Below are positions 3,271-25,369 of a stretch of 40,589 bases of DNA, one piece after another. Under the pieces are notes generated by a model. The model saw only the letters and a program-made list of their open reading frames with translations, was not told where the DNA came from and ran no database searches. Origin of the DNA: a virus (taxonomy: Duplodnaviria > Heunggongvirae > Uroviricota > Caudoviricetes). How positions within the stretch are numbered: position 1 is the stretch's first letter; the number at the start of each line of letters is the position of its first letter. The translations under genes and the position numbers were made by a program. Where the stretch lies: the IMG/VR virus record IMGVR_UViG_2718217867_000004, positions 1 to 40,589 of that record; one strand, given 5' to 3'.

Positions 3271-4691
3271 GTGTTTCTCGCTGTGAAGGAAAGCGGCATG
3301 AACGCCGGATGGACGGGAGAGACCGCCTGTACCAGTTCGTCCGCACGCGAGGCGTCCTGATACAGCCGGTTTGCCAGCGCCAGCGACGGCTGCGGTGAGC
3401 GGCTGGTCACCTTCATCACGTCCTGTTGTGACAGATAATTCGTCTGCCAGTGGGTGACAAACTGCGTGTACTGCGCATTCAGCGCGTCATAACTGTCGTC
3501 ATCCGTACGGTCAGCCAGTAACAGCAGGACGGTTTCCGTCACCGTGCGGGCCTTCCGCATCACCAACACCGCGTCGTCGTGACCACGGGGGGAATACTGC
3601 ATCAGCCGCCACAGCATCGCTCCGGCCCCCAGTGTGCGGATAAGGGCCTGCACCGCCGCAGAGATGGCATTTGCCGCCTCCCCTTCGTAATACGTCCCGT
3701 CTTCCGCCGACGCAATCTCAGCCATGACGCGGATTTTCTCCGTGTCGCTGCCCGTGGCCTCCGCCAGAGTGATAATGACCGCCTGTATCGCGGACACGGC
3801 ACCGGACACGGATGTGATATCCTCCAGCACCGCTGTCGCCGACTCCGCCGCCGACCGGTCCTGCACGGAGCAGGCCTGAATGGTTTCCAGGATACTGTCA
3901 TCATCCGCATCCGTGGTGGCAAGCCACGTTGCAAGCGACGAGGCCGTGCTGCCCGACGGCGTATCACTGCCCCGACAGTAACGCCCGTAACTGTCAGGCG
4001 AATACAGGGATGACACCGTGCTGGTCATGCTGGTCACCGACGTCACCGCCCGCGAAAATATCGTCTTCCACGCGCTCACCGTGCTCTTTATCGTTTTTAC
4101 CGCGCCGGTGACACTGTTCATCTCACCGGTAATCGCCGCCAGCGTCACGGTGGCCGTTGTGGTCAGCGTCTGATACCACGTCTCCGATGACGTGGAGGTT
4201 GTCCCCGTCACCAGTGAAAACGCTTTTTCCCCTGACTCAATGACGGTCAGCGTGAACGAAAACACACGCCCGGACTCCACGCCCTCTTCAATACGCAGAC
4301 CTCCGTCCGGGACATACACCGTCATCTCACCCAGCGTCGGATGGACCAGCAGACCTCCGCCGGATGTTTCACAGGCCGCCACCAGGGCATCCCGCTGACT
4401 GAACACATCCCCCGCGCTGTACACCAGACTGTCCTGTATCAGGAACCCGCGCAGTGTGAACTTCCGGGCGCTGCGCCCCAGGTCTTCCACCCAGACCGTA
4501 TCGCGGTACGGGTATTCATGCACCGCCACCCGGCGACCATATACCCCCTCTCCGGCAATCACGCCAAACGGCACGCCACAAAATGACGCCTGGTGAATAT
4601 GCGACTGCCACTCCCACCCGCCGGAGGAAGACAGCCCCAGGGCGGATGACACCGCGTCTGTGATAATGCCCATCTTCTGCTCCTCACACAT
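3267..4691 (-). CDS. DNA circulation protein-like tail protein (Mu gp43-like)
   Basis: 474 aa ORF directly downstream of the tape measure gene; Ser/Thr-rich central region; gene order matches Mu N. Confidence 0.65.
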   Translation of the reverse strand: MCEEQKMGIITDAVSSALGLSSSGGWEWQSHIHQASFCGVPFGVIAGEGVYGRRVAVHEYPYRDTVWVEDLGRSARKFTLRGFLIQDSLVYSAGDVFSQRDALVAACETSGGGLLVHPTLGEMTVYVPDGGLRIEEGVESGRVFSFTLTVIESGEKAFSLVTGTTSTSSETWYQTLTTTATVTLAAITGEMNSVTGAVKTIKSTVSAWKTIFSRAVTSVTSMTSTVSSLYSPDSYGRYCRGSDTPSGSTASSLATWLATTDADDDSILETIQACSVQDRSAAESATAVLEDITSVSGAVSAIQAVIITLAEATGSDTEKIRVMAEIASAEDGTYYEGEAANAISAAVQALIRTLGAGAMLWRLMQYSPRGHDDAVLVMRKARTVTETVLLLLADRTDDDSYDALNAQYTQFVTHWQTNYLSQQDVMKVTSRSPQPSLALANRLYQDASRADELVQAVSPVHPAFMPLSFTARNT

Positions 4692-20199: not shown

Positions 20200-20471
20200 C
20201 TCAACAATGGAAAGATTCTTGTGACGTTCCCGCGTGCGCGTATCACCAGCACGCAGAACAGCAGATTAAAAAACACCTCCAGCCAGCCCGTTGCTAACGA
20301 GCGACCACACAGATAGCTGAGGGGGGCAAAGGCATACAGCAGCATCAGCAGCCAGGCCAGCCATGACATCAGCGGTTTGTGCCTGGAGTCACGACGACGA
20401 TAAAAAAAGAGCGTCAGCACGATAACCGTGCATAACGCCACATTCAGCAATCCGGGAAGGTTACTTAACAT
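20196..20471 (-). CDS. Membrane protein of lysis cassette (holin/antiholin-like)
   Basis: 91 aa, strongly hydrophobic with several predicted TM helices; between holin and endolysin. Confidence 0.5.
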   Translation of the reverse strand: MLSNLPGLLNVALCTVIVLTLFFYRRRDSRHKPLMSWLAWLLMLLYAFAPLSYLCGRSLATGWLEVFFNLLFCVLVIRARGNVTRIFPLLR

Positions 20472-20856
20472 TGCCGCCTCCTCCGCCCCGCAGGCGCGAG
20501 AACAGACCAGACACCAGTGATGCGATATCCTGCTGGTGGATGAATGACATAATCTTTACCGACACCAGCGATACCAGCACCGCACACAATGCATCTGCAG
20601 ACGTGCCGTCATAACCAGTTTTTGATGCCACCCAGGCTGAAAGCAAACGCGCACCCAGTACGCCGACGATAAATGACACAAGAAAATGTGCCGCCACCCG
20701 CCATGCTGAAAGCGCCTGCGGTATCGTTGCAACAAACAACGCCCCCGCAAATGCGCCAAACACAATCCCGAAATCCGTTCCGGTAAACAGCCCGAAAACA
20801 GTCGCCCCACCGAGCGCAGCAGCTGTGCCGGAACCGGATAAGGGTTCAGACATACT
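20461..20856 (-). CDS. Holin-like membrane protein
   Basis: Start at MSEPLSG (CAGGAG SD); Gly/Ala-rich multi-TM protein; first gene after a strong terminator. Confidence 0.6.
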   Translation of the reverse strand, partial: SMSEPLSGSGTAAALGGATVFGLFTGTDFGIVFGAFAGALFVATIPQALSAWRVAAHFLVSFIVGVLGARLLSAWVASKTGYDGTSADALCAVLVSLVSVKIMSFIHQQDIASLVSGLFSRLRGGGGGNVK

Positions 20857-20892
20857 TTTTCTCCTGTAAATTAAAAAAGGCCACCAGCGGAC

Positions 20893-20942
20893 CAAAAAAA
20901 ACACCACACCAAAGACATCCGCAGATGCCTTTGTGTGGTGTT
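20893..20942 (-). terminator. Rho-independent terminator upstream of the lysis cassette
   Basis: Minus-strand hairpin with 14-bp arms (ACACCACACAAAGG / CTTTGGTGTGGTGT) followed by T8. Confidence 0.6.
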
Positions 20943-21653
20943 ATTCAGATTTGATATGTATGGGACGTGGAGCGAATACAACAAAGCCCGTCAGAACAGG
21001 CCTCAAAAAAAAGCCAGCTCTGGGGAGGCTGGCAGGAATGAAAAATGACTCTCGAGATTATTCATCACAAAACGGATTACTTTGCGCTGAACAGAATGCT
21101 CCTTCATCGTATATTTCTCAACTGGAGAGACTCATTTTCAGATTTTGTTATCTGTCATATTGACAGTCCCCACTTCTCCGGGGTAGTGAAGTAAGTGGCG
21201 TTTGCTTCCTGTAAATACCCGAGGGTTATCCATGATCTCTTGTATAAGGCATTCCTCAGTGGACTAATTTCGGAGTTATCATCCCGTTCAATTTCATCCA
21301 GGATCCCCTACTAAATAAGTTCACCATTCTTCAGGTGGCAGTTTCTTTCAGCCAGCCGTGCACTCAACAGCATATTCTTGTCGGACTCAGAATAACTCCT
21401 GCAAATGCAACAATGATGGCCGTCGCCCCAATAACCTTGTGCTGCCCGCATCTGTAAAAAGCGAAGGCCCCAAATTACCAGAATAAAACTGAGCAGATAT
21501 CCGACCTTCGTTACCGCATTGACTTCATTGTCTCATACACCAGGAGCAGCGAATTGCAAAGGATGAAGCACGCCCCATGAAGATTCTCCCAAAAACTATA
21601 ATTGTAAAAACCAAAGTAGCGGAAGCGAGCACTTGTAACCCCGAACTTTGAAT

Positions 21654-21680
21654 AAAAAAAAACCGCCTGGAGCGGCGGTT
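21654..21680 (-). terminator. Rho-independent terminator downstream of the tRNA pair
   Basis: Minus-strand hairpin ACCGCCGCTCCAGGCGGT followed by T9. Confidence 0.6.
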
Positions 21681-22032
21681 AATGGCATATAAAAACGCAT
21701 GATTTAATTTTATTCAGAAGTGTCGGGTGCCACCCGAAGCATCCAGCCCCACAAGGATACTGTGGTTTCCCGCTAAACCGACTCTTTAAACCACCCTCGC
21801 ACTGAGGAACACCTCTGTAGTGTTTTTACAACACCGGGATAGTGCATCATCAGCCCTGCCAGGAAATACTAAATCTCCACCGATAATGCACCATTCCATT
21901 GTTGTAAAAAATCAGCACTGAGGCTATAACCGACCTCAAACCATAGCCTGAGGACCAAAGATGTATTAAAACAACCTGCCCCCACGTAAAAAAACACGCC
22001 AGTGCTGTATAATTCGTGTTGCCAGAATAATG

Positions 22033-22107
<75 letters not shown>

Positions 22108-22110
22108 CAT

Positions 22111-22186
<76 letters not shown>

Positions 22187-22352
22187 CATTGGTTCCTCAG
22201 GTGTGGATGAGATGCCCGGATACATAAATTACCCTCCCTTGGAACCGACGAAGAATAATAATGAATTCCGCTCCTGTTTCAATACAAACAATGTCAGGTA
22301 TTTAAAACATAATTATACAATATTATAAAAATTAAAAAGTTCGCAAAAAAAG

Positions 22353-23399
22353 TTAACTATTGTTTCTTACTTCATCAACCGTTTGATTAAACCTATCCGT
22401 TTCCAGCTCTACACCAATAGCTCTACGTTCCAGATAGAGCGCAGCCTTTATAGTCGCCCCCGATCCCATAAAAAAGTCTGCAACCAGTTCCCCCGGACGA
22501 CTGCTGGCTGTAATTATCTGCCGCAACATATCTGCTGGCTTCTCACACGGATGTTTACCCGGATAATACTGCACAGGTTTGTGCGTCCAGACATCCGTAT
22601 AAGGAACGGCAGCTGATACGGAAAAATAACGCCGCAAAGATTTATACTCTTCCAGCAGGCTGACATATTGCCGGTTCAGTTCGCTGTATGTGCTGACCAG
22701 ATGGTGGTGTGGCTTTTCCAGTTCTCCGCGTTGATGTTTTTCTGCTGCAACACGCGCAAACAACGCCTGCAGCTTTCTGTAATCAGCTTCGTTCGGTAAC
22801 TGCCACTGGCTGGCACCAAACCAGTGCGAAGCCATGTTTTTCTTTCCGGTGGCTTCCGCTATCTGTTTCGGCGTTATCCCCAGTGATTCACGCGCATCAC
22901 GAAAGTAAGAAATCAGCGGAGCCATGACATGCTGTTTAAGCTCGCGCCCCTTTGCCACATAGCCATCATTTTTTGGCCGATATGGCCCCTGGTAATGTTC
23001 AGCAAACAGTATGTGCTCTGTTGCCGGGAAATATGCCCTCAGGCTTTCCTTCCTGCACCCGTTCCAGCGTCCGGACGGCTTCGCCCAGATGATATGGTTA
23101 AGCACGTTGAAATGTTCACGCAACATGATCTCGATATCAGATGCCAGACGATGCCCACAGAACAGATAAAGACTTCCGGCGGGCTTCAGTACCCGCCAGA
23201 ACTGCGCCAGACACTGGTCCAGCCACTTCAGGTAATCATCGTCACCCTTCCACTGGTTATCCCAGCCCTCGGGCTTCACTTTAAAGTATGGCGGGTCTGT
23301 GACTATCAAATCGACAGAGTTTTCCGGTAAGGTCTGGATAAATCCCAGGCAATCAGCGTTGATTAACTCACAACTGGATATTTTTACAGTGTTAACCAT
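22353..23399 (-). CDS. DNA methyltransferase (N6-adenine/N4-cytosine, beta class), orphan
   Basis: 348 aa; N-terminal DPPY motif (VTDPPYF) and C-terminal FxGxG motif (FFMGSGAT); no adjacent restriction endonuclease gene. Confidence 0.9.
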   Translation of the reverse strand: MVNTVKISSCELINADCLGFIQTLPENSVDLIVTDPPYFKVKPEGWDNQWKGDDDYLKWLDQCLAQFWRVLKPAGSLYLFCGHRLASDIEIMLREHFNVLNHIIWAKPSGRWNGCRKESLRAYFPATEHILFAEHYQGPYRPKNDGYVAKGRELKQHVMAPLISYFRDARESLGITPKQIAEATGKKNMASHWFGASQWQLPNEADYRKLQALFARVAAEKHQRGELEKPHHHLVSTYSELNRQYVSLLEEYKSLRRYFSVSAAVPYTDVWTHKPVQYYPGKHPCEKPADMLRQIITASSRPGELVADFFMGSGATIKAALYLERRAIGVELETDRFNQTVDEVRNNS

Positions 23400-23620
23400 A
23401 GATCAATAAGCACTTCTCTGATAGGCTCATTCCGCTTTTGCGCAAAGCAGATGGGCCTGAGGTTTGCTTGTGACCCCAACGCATGAGCAGATGGCTGGCA
23501 GGTGCCGCTAACACCCACCAGCCGCCCATTACCACAAATAAAAAAGCCTTCACTGCGGAAGGCGTCTGTAACAACCGAACTGATAATCAGCCAGGCCCGC
23601 CATAACAAGCTGGGTCAGTA

Positions 23621-23740
23621 TTAGCGCTCGCGTGAAAGGTAAGTATTCTGCGCAATCTCCCCGACGGTCGCCGGTTCGGTGACGCTTAATTCATTAAACA
23701 CAACTCTGGCGGTTTCGGTCATATCCTGCTGTTTTAGCAT
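23621..23740 (-). CDS. Small hypothetical protein (39 aa)
   Basis: Start at MLKQQDM with a weak AAGGGA SD; the longer track ORF needs a GTG start. Confidence 0.25.
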   Translation of the reverse strand: MLKQQDMTETARVVFNELSVTEPATVGEIAQNTYLSRER

Positions 23741-23861
23741 GTCTTTTTCCCTTTTCTGGTTAACGTGACATACCAATAACTCATGTCGAAAAAGCCAGCA
23801 AGCAGAAAGACCAGTATTAATAACCACAGCACATTTAACGCACTGCGCTACTTTGCGAGCA

Positions 23862-23885
23862 CAAAAAACCCGCTCAGAGGCGGGT
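23862..23885 (-). terminator. Rho-independent terminator downstream of the CPBP gene
   Basis: Minus-strand hairpin CCCGCCTCTGAGCGGG followed by T6. Confidence 0.6.
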
Positions 23886-24025
23886 TCAGGCTATGCAGTG
23901 AAATAACCACTCTTAAAAGCATACATGATTTTTTACGTACGTAAATACTTTGCCGTGCATATTTCTCATGCAAATGTCACATCCTGCTATTTTTCAGTGT
24001 TATAAATTTAAGGCCATAGAAAAAA

Positions 24026-24850
24026 TCAATTATGTTTTAAGAATGGATAGGTAAAGAATAACAAGTGACACAGATTCAGACCAAAATGGAAAAGGGTTGC
24101 CACCCACAAGCGCCCACTCCACATCCATGACAATCCATACACAACACCAGATAACGTGGCAAATAATACAAGTAAAGCACCACCTGAATAGTGAAAAAGA
24201 CCAAACAACAAAGACGCCACAATTAACGCAATCAATGGAGACGTTACTTCTGATAGCCGTGATTGAATATACCCTCTAAATAATGATTCCTCTGCCAGAG
24301 ACACAAAAAACAAATTAGCCAATATAAACTCTGGCAACCACTCAGGAAAATGAATCTCTGGCTTTAACCCACCAAAAAAAACAGCCCAAAAAAGGATAAG
24401 AGGAACAGAGAGCAACAGAGCCCCCCATTTCCACAAAGACACTTCTGATTTCACTTCTTTTTTAAACAAAGAAGCTGTACACAGGACTAACAAAAATGGC
24501 ACCAGCGCTTTATCAAAATTAAAATACATTGTATAGGGAGTGCTTTGAGGTCCGACAGTAACAGACTTTAGCACTACAGGATTGTGAAACCCTGGCCATA
24601 AATGGAAAGATAATGCTATGGCTGATAAAACTATGCCAGCTTCATATATGGATTTAGCCCAGGCGTTATATTTCCAGTTGAACTTCAAAATAATAAAAAA
24701 AACGATTGTAGCAACAAAAAACAACACAGGCCAATCAATAATATCATTAAGCACAGCCAGGACAACAGACACCGTCAACAATGAAAAAGCCACTACCTTA
24801 TGCCAACTGAGAGTTGACAGTGACAGTGCTAACACAATCCACATAAACAC
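24026..24850 (-). CDS. CPBP family intramembrane metalloprotease (CAAX protease / Abi family)
   Basis: 274 aa polytopic membrane protein with EExxxR (LAEESLFRGY), FxxxH (FGLFHYS) and a second His motif (LFHFGLN); strong AAGGAG SD; markedly low GC; first gene downstream of Q. Confidence 0.85.
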   Translation of the reverse strand: MFMWIVLALSLSTLSWHKVVAFSLLTVSVVLAVLNDIIDWPVLFFVATIVFFIILKFNWKYNAWAKSIYEAGIVLSAIALSFHLWPGFHNPVVLKSVTVGPQSTPYTMYFNFDKALVPFLLVLCTASLFKKEVKSEVSLWKWGALLLSVPLILFWAVFFGGLKPEIHFPEWLPEFILANLFFVSLAEESLFRGYIQSRLSEVTSPLIALIVASLLFGLFHYSGGALLVLFATLSGVVYGLSWMWSGRLWVATLFHFGLNLCHLLFFTYPFLKHN

Positions 24851-24994
24851 TCCTTTTATTTAATGATGAAGATTGATTATCAATATTTTCAATTCACCTG
24901 GCAACATTTTGTTTACTTTCCATAAAATTCACGACCACAAAATAAACACATTGATTATAAACATAGGAAACATAACCATAGTCACTATATATCC

Positions 24995-25369
24995 CTACCG
25001 CATATCCATATCTAACCTGACATTCAGAGCCATAAGCATTCCTTCAATAATACCTTCTGCTTTATAAAGTCTTTTACCAATAAGCCCATCAGAACATCTA
25101 TGCTTACGTGCAAGAGCCATAAATGTCATTCCACCTACGTAATAATCCACCAACAAATTGTGCAAATACTGATTATTCTTGTTTAATCGTGCCATACAGC
25201 CACAAATTATCATGGCGTCATCATCAGAACACTGAGGACGTGATTTCACTTTAGCCGGGATTAATCCTTTAAAACCAGCAGCTATCGAGGGCCATGTTAC
25301 ATCTTCATGATTATTTGCTGCCCATGCTCCCCACCGCTCCATAACCAGCTGAATATCACGCAACATCAT
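24995..25369 (-). CDS. Late-gene antiterminator Q (933W-type Q family)
   Basis: 124 aa; closely matches the Stx-phage 933W Q sequence as I recall it (RDIQ...[16 protein letters not shown]...IICGCMARL...GMLMAL). Confidence 0.9.

Follow-up and report, generated by a model that had tools for sequence, protein, structure and literature searches.

The window analysed here is a stretch of 40,589 nucleotides (nt) from a virus of the Caudoviricetes, comprising positions 1 to 40,589 of the IMG/VR record IMGVR_UViG_2718217867_000004. We examined the gap at 20950-22032 that separates its pair of transfer RNA (tRNA) genes from its lysis cassette. This gap is a cargo ('moron') slot between the antiterminator gene Q and the lysis genes of a lambdoid late operon. 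We consider it quite probable that the slot carries three independently inherited modules, A, B and C, consisting of a structured unit resembling a small RNA (sRNA), a dead gene, and a holin leader with terminators. Homology and structure support the placing of D3, the distal part of the first module, in the STnc100/PasD superfamily of prophage sRNAs as a divergent member. The modules are arranged as follows.

22033-21650, minus strand: module A, a non-coding structured unit of about 370 nt directly after tRNA-Gly
21649-20974, minus strand: module B, a decayed cargo gene with its two terminators
20973-20854, minus strand: module C, the conserved leader of the holin gene

Concerning distribution, only five of 5426 complete Escherichia coli genomes contained the entire gap, with an identity of about 99%, and the stretch 21650-22200 was found at 77-91% identity in hundreds of E. 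coli genomes. When 21640-22036 was used as the query, 427 of the 5426 genomes matched at least partly and 130 matched over at least 80%. Module A lies 3′ of tRNA-Gly regardless of whether its upstream neighbour is a methylase gene or a DUF1133 Q-like gene. What follows it varies from prophage to prophage: nothing, TerB and DUF3927, IS66, or an intact gene for a 164-amino-acid (aa) protein of phrog_6315. In a 17-mer scan covering one genome per species, almost all of the 40 matches were chance matches in unrelated high-GC genomes. Only that in Escherichia ruysiae was real, and the scan detected no member of this RNA subfamily outside the genus Escherichia.

The fold of module A was examined with an alignment of 14 copies. 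The RNAalifold consensus comprised 67 pairs, distributed over three domains and a terminator, T1.

21906-22006, minus strand: D1, a cloverleaf-like domain with the closing helix AGCACUG/CAGUGCU (22006-22000 with 21920-21914) and three arms
21823-21911, minus strand: Hc, a hairpin of about 33 pairs, UUUUUUACAACA...UGUUGUAAAAA
21650-21822, minus strand: D3, the STnc100/PasD-like core, with three hairpins inside an outer helix (GAGGUG/CACUUC), then an A/U-rich linker, and finally T1
21652-21680, minus strand: T1, AACCGCCGCTCCAGGCGGTT followed by a run of nine T, giving a 7-bp GC-rich stem, a 6-nt loop and nine U

Across the alignment, 95.5% of the cells assigned to pairs were actually paired, as against 36-53% when the partners were slid. 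The number of pairs changed on both sides was 21, compared to 6.4±1.7 in shuffled alignments (none of 500 reached the observed value) and 7-9 when slid. Because G.U pairs frequently alternate with A-U or G-C, the fold is specific to RNA of the minus strand.

In D1 (fold z-score −2.6), the closing helix was paired in 100% of the 14 sequences with two compensated pairs, and a pair in one of the arms changed from GC to AU in six sequences. The first-pass annotation had placed a near-perfect hairpin at about 21911-21946; the hairpin is real, with nine of ten pairs formed and one mismatch, but its position is 21918-21952, and it is one of the three arms of D1. A run of six U (21911-21906) directly follows the domain and may represent a weak terminator, T0.

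The shape of D1 raised the possibility that it, and perhaps more of the gap, derives from a degenerate tRNA gene of a longer phage tRNA array; degenerate tRNA remnants in the gap had been suggested from the sequence at first reading. The 7-bp closing stem with three arms, the last of which abuts the 3′ strand in the manner of a T arm, is consistent with this, as is the presence of three to four tRNAs at this place in related prophages. With its threshold lowered to 50%, ARAGORN also reported 21920-22014 on the minus strand as a 95-nt tRNA-like fold with a four-base anticodon. This call is at noise level, and the same run gave five other plainly spurious ones. At E-values up to 5 with the Rfam tRNA model, and with ARAGORN under default or -ps settings, no tRNA was detected in D1 or elsewhere in 20880-22033. 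The arm lengths are unlike those of tRNA, and the domain is conserved with compensatory changes, unlike a decaying remnant. We therefore regard a tRNA origin as highly improbable. Nonetheless, three arms on a 7-bp closing stem make a curious shape for a conserved element situated right after a tRNA gene.

Hc, which had been overlooked, is the largest hairpin of the region. Its minimum free energy was −41.9 kcal/mol (z-score −6.4), and none of 200 shuffled sequences was as stable. The main helix, accounting for 28 of the 33 pairs, was 97.4% paired in the 14 sequences with seven pairs altered on both sides, and many pairs alternate between G.U and A-U or G-C, pairing only in minus-strand RNA. 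Hc is a candidate processing site for the double-strand-specific RNase III, or may act as a stabiliser. Among the Rfam models, cut-offs in the region were reached by those for tRNA only. Matches to microRNA precursors and snoRNAs were discarded as artefacts of hairpin shape.

As for D3, one of its three inner hairpins is a core hairpin with the consensus CGGGAGGCACCCG. The window departs from it at a single loop base and two variants occur elsewhere; otherwise it is invariant. The base in question is position 21732, which is T (U in RNA) in the window and A in E. coli E24377A and nearly all other family members. T1 is a strong intrinsic terminator that closes the tRNA/sRNA unit. It is kept in the other family members whose alignment extends that far, and the changes seen in it either fall within the loop or are compensated. 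A covariance model built from D1 and Hc (R2) always matched directly upstream of the matches of a second model, R1, built from ten D3 sequences including the window copy, even where no tRNA preceded them. D1, Hc and D3 therefore constitute one unit. Phage 933W lacks the extension that R2 describes. When R1 was run on D1 and Hc with filters off, no second STnc100 copy was detected.

We then considered what D3 is related to. The suggestion in the first-pass annotation that the gap could hold sRNAs is supported for 21839-21650 on the minus strand, a segment that is STnc100/PasD-like by homology and structure and lies within the covariation-backed unit of about 370 nt. The Rfam STnc100 model (RF02076) aligned with it at full length (model positions 1-206) at 19.3 bits (E-value 0.12-0.45, cut-off 47 bits), and with the homologous place in another copy (locus L008) at 24.4 bits. 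R1 scored 203 bits on the window, which is a self-match by construction. In 933W it matched 3789-3984 at 26 bits (E-value 4e-4 in 48 kb and 8.5e-6 in 1 kb), exactly the locus that the Rfam STnc100 model recognises at 207.7 bits and next to which the convergent AsxR lies. Among 80 IMG/VR loci collected by the core motif, R1 gave 41 matches in a graded range of 30-218 bits, and those of 30-50 bits were bona fide STnc100 by the Rfam model (69-145 bits). A bridging copy in locus L100 (2675-2864) scored 74.5 bits with R1 and 38.1 bits with Rfam STnc100. The D3 subfamily is in this way connected to STnc100 by reciprocal and transitive profile searches.

The two RNAs are also alike in position and architecture. 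Both occupy the slot between Q and the tRNAs on one side and the lysis cassette on the other, on the late strand. Both are about 190-200 nt long. Each has a 5′ hairpin CCUC..GAGG and the core hairpin CGGGAGGCACCCG, the latter enclosed by a helix, and an A/U-rich linker leads to an intrinsic terminator with a U tail. They differ in that D3 is preceded by a conserved extension of 190 nt (the cloverleaf-like domain and the 33-bp hairpin) that the STnc100 of 933W does not have, has no convergent AsxR or AgvB partner, ends in a unidirectional terminator, and belongs to a unit that directly follows tRNA genes rather than a toxin gene as in Shiga toxin 2 (Stx2) phages. In the latter, STnc100 follows stx2B at a distance of 75 nt (PMC12370729). 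The enterohaemorrhagic E. coli strain EDL933 transcribes eleven copies of STnc100 (PMC5331693), and STnc100, as the sRNA convergent with AsxR and 3′ of stx2B, is probably EcOnc27 of Tree et al. (2014). AgvB (RF02702) and AsxR (RF02703) were not found in the region by Rfam at E-values up to 5, and PasA gave only BLAST words of at most 14 nt; a convergent sRNA of the PasA/PasC or AgvB/AsxR type beside the holin gene was accordingly rejected.

PasD1 and PasD2, of enteropathogenic E. coli E2348/69 and also phage 434, are likewise prophage sRNAs downstream of Q, in the sense of the late operon and ended by a terminator. A 2026 preprint (10.64898/2026.05.13.724894) describes them as structural relatives of STnc100, and the stability of PasD sRNAs is Hfq-dependent (PMC8550237). 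Expression and association with Hfq have been published for sRNAs of the STnc100/PasD superfamily. PasD2 itself reached only 41.4 bits with RF02076. R1 did not match PasD2, and blastn found only short shared words. The PasD seed CUUGUGAG is absent from the window unit, and PasD, unlike D3, has a clear promoter of its own.

The late region of 933W as a whole (Q, pR′, qut, terminators, pT, tRNAs, a terminator, stx2AB, STnc100/AsxR, an esterase gene and S) has its parts in the same order as the window: an antiterminator and cargo genes come first, then a tRNA cluster that has a promoter of its own, and after it terminators, an sRNA and a holin. In place of Shiga toxin, the window carries a CPBP protease, a small open reading frame (ORF), a methylase and the dead gene, and its tRNAs (Thr and Gly) and lysis cassette (two holins and an M15 peptidase) differ from those of 933W.

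Several variant arrangements of the RNA unit were noted. Plasmid pGPT24-02-A (NZ_OZ282454), of 130 kb, bears a full copy of the unit (about 370 nt) at 2504-2848 of the extracted locus, amid remnants of IS200/IS605, IS3 and IS630 and away from any phage lysis genes; 40 of the matching places in the search with 21640-22036 are on plasmids. In phage SerU-LTIIb (KU052038), an LT-IIb-associated fragment, the block of tRNA pair, RNA unit and holin is present twice, first with tRNA-Arg/Gly and holin1a and then with tRNA-Thr/Gly and holin1, and the two RNA units are divergent. In strain EcPNK006 (2284-2595 of the locus) the unit is truncated after the long hairpin, and PGAP annotates a 103-aa hypothetical protein starting within the hairpin sequence; this annotation may be spurious. 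STnc100-like tandem arrays of two to four copies, about 220-490 nt apart and often beside phage tRNA genes, occur in IMG/VR loci L080 (342-1038), L136 (4380-5517), L069, L093 and L107.

In terms of transcription, one site upstream of the tRNAs was identified.

22255-22282, minus strand: promoter-like site TTGAAA-16-TATTAT (10 of 12 consensus positions), 3′ of the methylase gene and 68 nt 5′ of tRNA-Thr

By its match to the consensus, this is a candidate promoter for the tRNA and sRNA unit. IMG/VR locus L100 has a promoter-like site that shares the −35 hexamer and spacing (TTGAAA-16), lies 3′ of a methylase-sized ORF and directly precedes a copy of the sRNA unit. In 933W, a tRNA promoter, pT, is annotated at the corresponding position.

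These findings bear on whether module A could be no more than a 3′ trailer of the phage tRNA operon that acts in cis, contributing to tRNA 3′ maturation, transcript stability and termination with no trans-acting sRNA; its likeness to STnc100 would then reflect shared ancestry of the terminator region and not shared function. Module A does begin right after tRNA-Gly and stop at the first strong terminator, D3 has no clear promoter before it and scores far under the STnc100 cut-off, and the window copy has its substitution in the most conserved loop. On the other hand, the same unit of about 370 nt occurs in L100 without a preceding tRNA, directly after the promoter-like site; this length of covarying structure far exceeds what termination needs; and relatives in the same slot are abundant, some of them being Hfq-dependent sRNAs (PMC8550237, PMC5331693). 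We judge that a trailer function without an sRNA is distinctly unlikely. A slightly better chance, though still a low one, is given to the possibility that the unit represents a separate composite RNA gene, so far uncatalogued, of Escherichia prophages. It would be cotranscribed with the tRNAs as their 3′ spacer, and cleavage at the long hairpin, probably by RNase III, would free an Hfq-dependent sRNA. If true, such a gene would tie the phage's supply of tRNA to the regulation of host genes in lysogens. It is known that sRNAs can arise from the 3′ external transcribed spacer of tRNA operons (3′ETS-leuZ) and that short terminated late transcripts exist (lambda 6S RNA, StxS). The likeness to both kinds of case is that a regulatory RNA could accumulate from a structured stretch lying between the operon terminator and either the last tRNA or the promoter; these cases have no sequence relation to the window unit, whose processing is predicted only. 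An entry '3′ESTleuZ' appears in the tables of PMC8550237.

We next turned to module B, within which about 390 nt of supposedly empty DNA proved to correspond to a dead protein gene that had previously been missed.

21174-21563, minus strand: pseudogene, a remnant related to the 164-aa hypothetical protein WP_021560133 (phrog_6315)
21033-21005, minus strand: T2a, GCCAGCCUCCCCAGAGCUGGC followed by eight U
21005-20974, minus strand: T2b, a G.U-rich hairpin of 10 pairs whose U tail is weak

A locus of strain 2015C-4136CT1 (L006) is collinear with the gap and contains tRNA-Gly, the terminator of module A, an intact gene for the 164-aa hypothetical protein, and two hairpins. A tblastn search recovered the remnant with 60% identity over 43 aa (E-value 5e-11). 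At the DNA level, nt 13-422 of the gene and 21563-21174 of the window were 64.6% identical, with seven frame-breaking indels and two in-frame deletions. The remnant contains internal stop codons, including a tandem TAG TAG at about 21306-21311, has no start codon, and its 3′ end has diverged or been deleted. After repair of the frame, its translation was 44% identical to the intact protein (E-value 7e-24), and did not reach the PHROG profile. The intact relative matched phrog_6315, a family of unknown function, with an E-value of 2e-27; the window copy has neither an intact reading frame nor a start codon. Module B is a decayed gene related to the phrog_6315 protein. It is present in only five genomes, and because these near-identical genomes differ by substitutions only, the damage is common to all of them.

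T2a and T2b are tandem terminators belonging to the dead cargo gene: both are also found 3′ of the intact gene in L006, and in a further locus (L007), and T2b displays compensatory changes (C-G to U.G, U.G to U-A and U-A to C-G).

The intact gene (3190-3684 in L006) encodes a protein with a hydrophobic N-terminal half, for which nothing was found in Pfam, NCBIfam or PADLOC, and PHROG gives only the 'unknown function' family. Its only phage relative is a hypothetical protein of Fels-2 (NC_010463, 30367-30795), a P2-like Salmonella phage, with 33% identity. Given this homologue, the gene is a cargo gene common to lambdoid and P2-like phages.

The last part of the gap, module C, had likewise not been recognised before as the conserved leader of the holin gene.

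20854-20973, minus strand: holin leader with T3, T4 and the Shine-Dalgarno sequence GGAG, followed by the start codon ATG at 20853-20851
20942-20894, minus strand: T3, a 19-bp stem followed by a run of eight T/U, inside the leader
20893-20873, minus strand: T4, a small hairpin followed by a T-run, inside the leader

About 110 nt before the holin start were conserved in all six compared loci with this holin family, whatever lies upstream.

A number of points weigh against the three-module reading and the place of D3 in it. The consensus fold was derived from the same 14-sequence alignment that was used for the pair counts, and several of the sequences are close relatives. D3 is well under the Rfam gathering cut-off and is not a member of STnc100 by that threshold. 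The E-values of R1 and R2 are rough, resulting from a short calibration. The identity of about 70% to the STnc100 of 933W comes from an optimistic global alignment and applies only to the aligned pairs of a gapped alignment. By eye, no convincing sigma-70 promoter, as an analogue of the PasD2 promoter, was found directly 5′ of D3, only a poor match. The 5′ end, processing, Hfq binding and targets of this sRNA subfamily are ones that we infer. Finally, module B is known only from near-identical copies, and its substitution density is only slightly raised, at 2.05 per 100 nt compared to about 1.2 elsewhere, based on small numbers.

Terminators are a prominent component of the slot. In 20300-22700 we counted nine terminator-like sites, eight of them on the minus strand, against 2.6±1.8 in shuffled sequences. 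Two strong minus-strand terminators had been proposed at 21654-21680 and 20893-20942, and both were borne out, as T1 and T3 respectively. T1, T2a and T3 have a GC-rich stem-loop with a U tract directly after it and exceed shuffled sequences in stability (the fold of the T3 region had a z-score of −4.6); T0, T2b and T4 are weaker or atypical. All terminators of the gap are unidirectional. The idea of a late-transcript attenuator system stands only in a generic sense, in that four to five co-directional intrinsic terminators precede the holin gene, but there was no sign of a dedicated attenuator. Lambdoid late operons that are antiterminated by Q and carry cargo genes normally have co-directional terminators ahead of the holin. 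A dedicated cis-acting RNA switch, such as a put-like processive antiterminator or an attenuator governing read-through into the lysis genes, would fit the large conserved RNA structures upstream of several late-strand terminators. The Q gene and pR′-like promoter upstream are sufficient for read-through, no mutually exclusive pairings with the terminator stems were found, and the RNA unit closes with its own strong terminator, as sRNA genes do. We attach next to no probability to such a switch, and retain the reading of the gap as a slot of three modules.

The ORF poverty claimed for 20950-22032 was confirmed. Only two mechanically called ORFs of at least 60 aa touch the region, and neither is credible: one on the plus strand (20933-21163, 76 aa) has a GTG start and spans the terminator hairpins, and one on the minus strand (21869-22066, 65 aa) extends into the tRNA-Gly gene. 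Neither gave a significant Pfam or PHROG match. The sole listed hit, XRN1_DBM, was spurious (E-value 0.075, 13.4 bits against a cut-off of 27). PGAP annotates nothing in the gap in two near-identical genomes, E24377A and PapM-36-2. The possibility that the region encodes unannotated small proteins was considered for the 76-aa ORF and for a 49-aa ORF on the plus strand (21045-21194). Both ORFs are present, the latter has a GGA-N7-ATG start, and its first codons partly recur in L007 (MTFEITRH versus MTLEIIHH). However, Pfam and PHROG hold no family that either of them matches, neither keeps its length or sequence in L007 or L006, and both lie antisense over terminator hairpins. Small proteins on either strand are hardly credible, and with no family matches and no conservation we rejected them.

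The genetic context of the gap is that of an E. coli lambdoid prophage whose late genes are all on the minus strand. The neighbouring features are the following.

24995-25369, minus strand: Q antiterminator gene
24876-24904, minus strand: pR′-like promoter, upstream of the gap
24026-24850: gene for a CPBP intramembrane protease, with a terminator at 23887-23866; a cargo unit between Q and the tRNAs
23621-23827: small ORF, with a terminator at 23563-23546; a cargo unit between Q and the tRNAs
22353-23399: DNA methyltransferase gene; a cargo unit between Q and the tRNAs
22187-22112, minus strand: tRNA-Thr(UGU), found by ARAGORN and the Rfam tRNA model
22108-22034, minus strand: tRNA-Gly(UCC), found by ARAGORN and the Rfam tRNA model; marks the 5′ boundary of the conserved module
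20461-20853, minus strand: holin gene, the first of the lysis cassette, annotated by PGAP as 'putative holin' in near-identical genomes

The order on the minus strand is thus Q, protease, small ORF, methyltransferase, tRNA-Thr, tRNA-Gly, the gap and the lysis cassette, which comprises two holins, the first at 20853-20461, and an M15 peptidase. The Rfam tRNA scores of the Thr and Gly pair were 69.8 and 65.6 bits, respectively.

From these parts, their conservation, the RNA fold and the homologies, we propose the following for transcription, processing, sRNA function and the effect of the terminators. The promoter-like site, tRNA-Thr, tRNA-Gly and the RNA of about 370 nt would form a single transcription unit that is expressed in the lysogen and stops at T1. 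The tRNAs would be excised from the joint transcript, Hc would provide a processing or stability site, and D3, with its A/U-rich linker and U-tailed terminator, may accumulate as a trans-acting sRNA. T1, T2a/b and T3/T4, along with the upstream terminators at 23887-23866 and 23563-23546, would halt polymerase lacking the Q modification, and the lysis genes would be reached only by Q-modified transcription from the pR′-like promoter at 24904-24876. Read-through of terminators to the lysis genes by Q-modified polymerase is established for lambda and 933W. In Stx phages, the toxin is carried at the equivalent slot between Q and lysis (Tree et al. 2014, PMC4104026).

Most of the gap is explained by known biology and is largely ordinary: a cargo slot that holds an sRNA and a dead gene, together with terminators silencing the lysis genes until Q acts. 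What is new is a well-defined, structurally extended STnc100/PasD subfamily that the Rfam model misses. About 8% of complete E. coli genomes carry at least part of it, and it is characterized by a conserved 190-nt structured extension and by linkage to phage tRNA genes. Its inclusion in RNA family libraries would close an annotation gap in many E. coli prophages, and the subfamily would provide more distant relatives for tracing the evolution of the Pas/STnc100 sRNAs.

Upstream of the gap, the interval from Q to the tRNAs (22353-25369) is a chain of cargo units, most with a minus-strand terminator of their own. In E24377A, the slot of the protease is occupied instead by a Ser/Thr kinase and a PP2C phosphatase.

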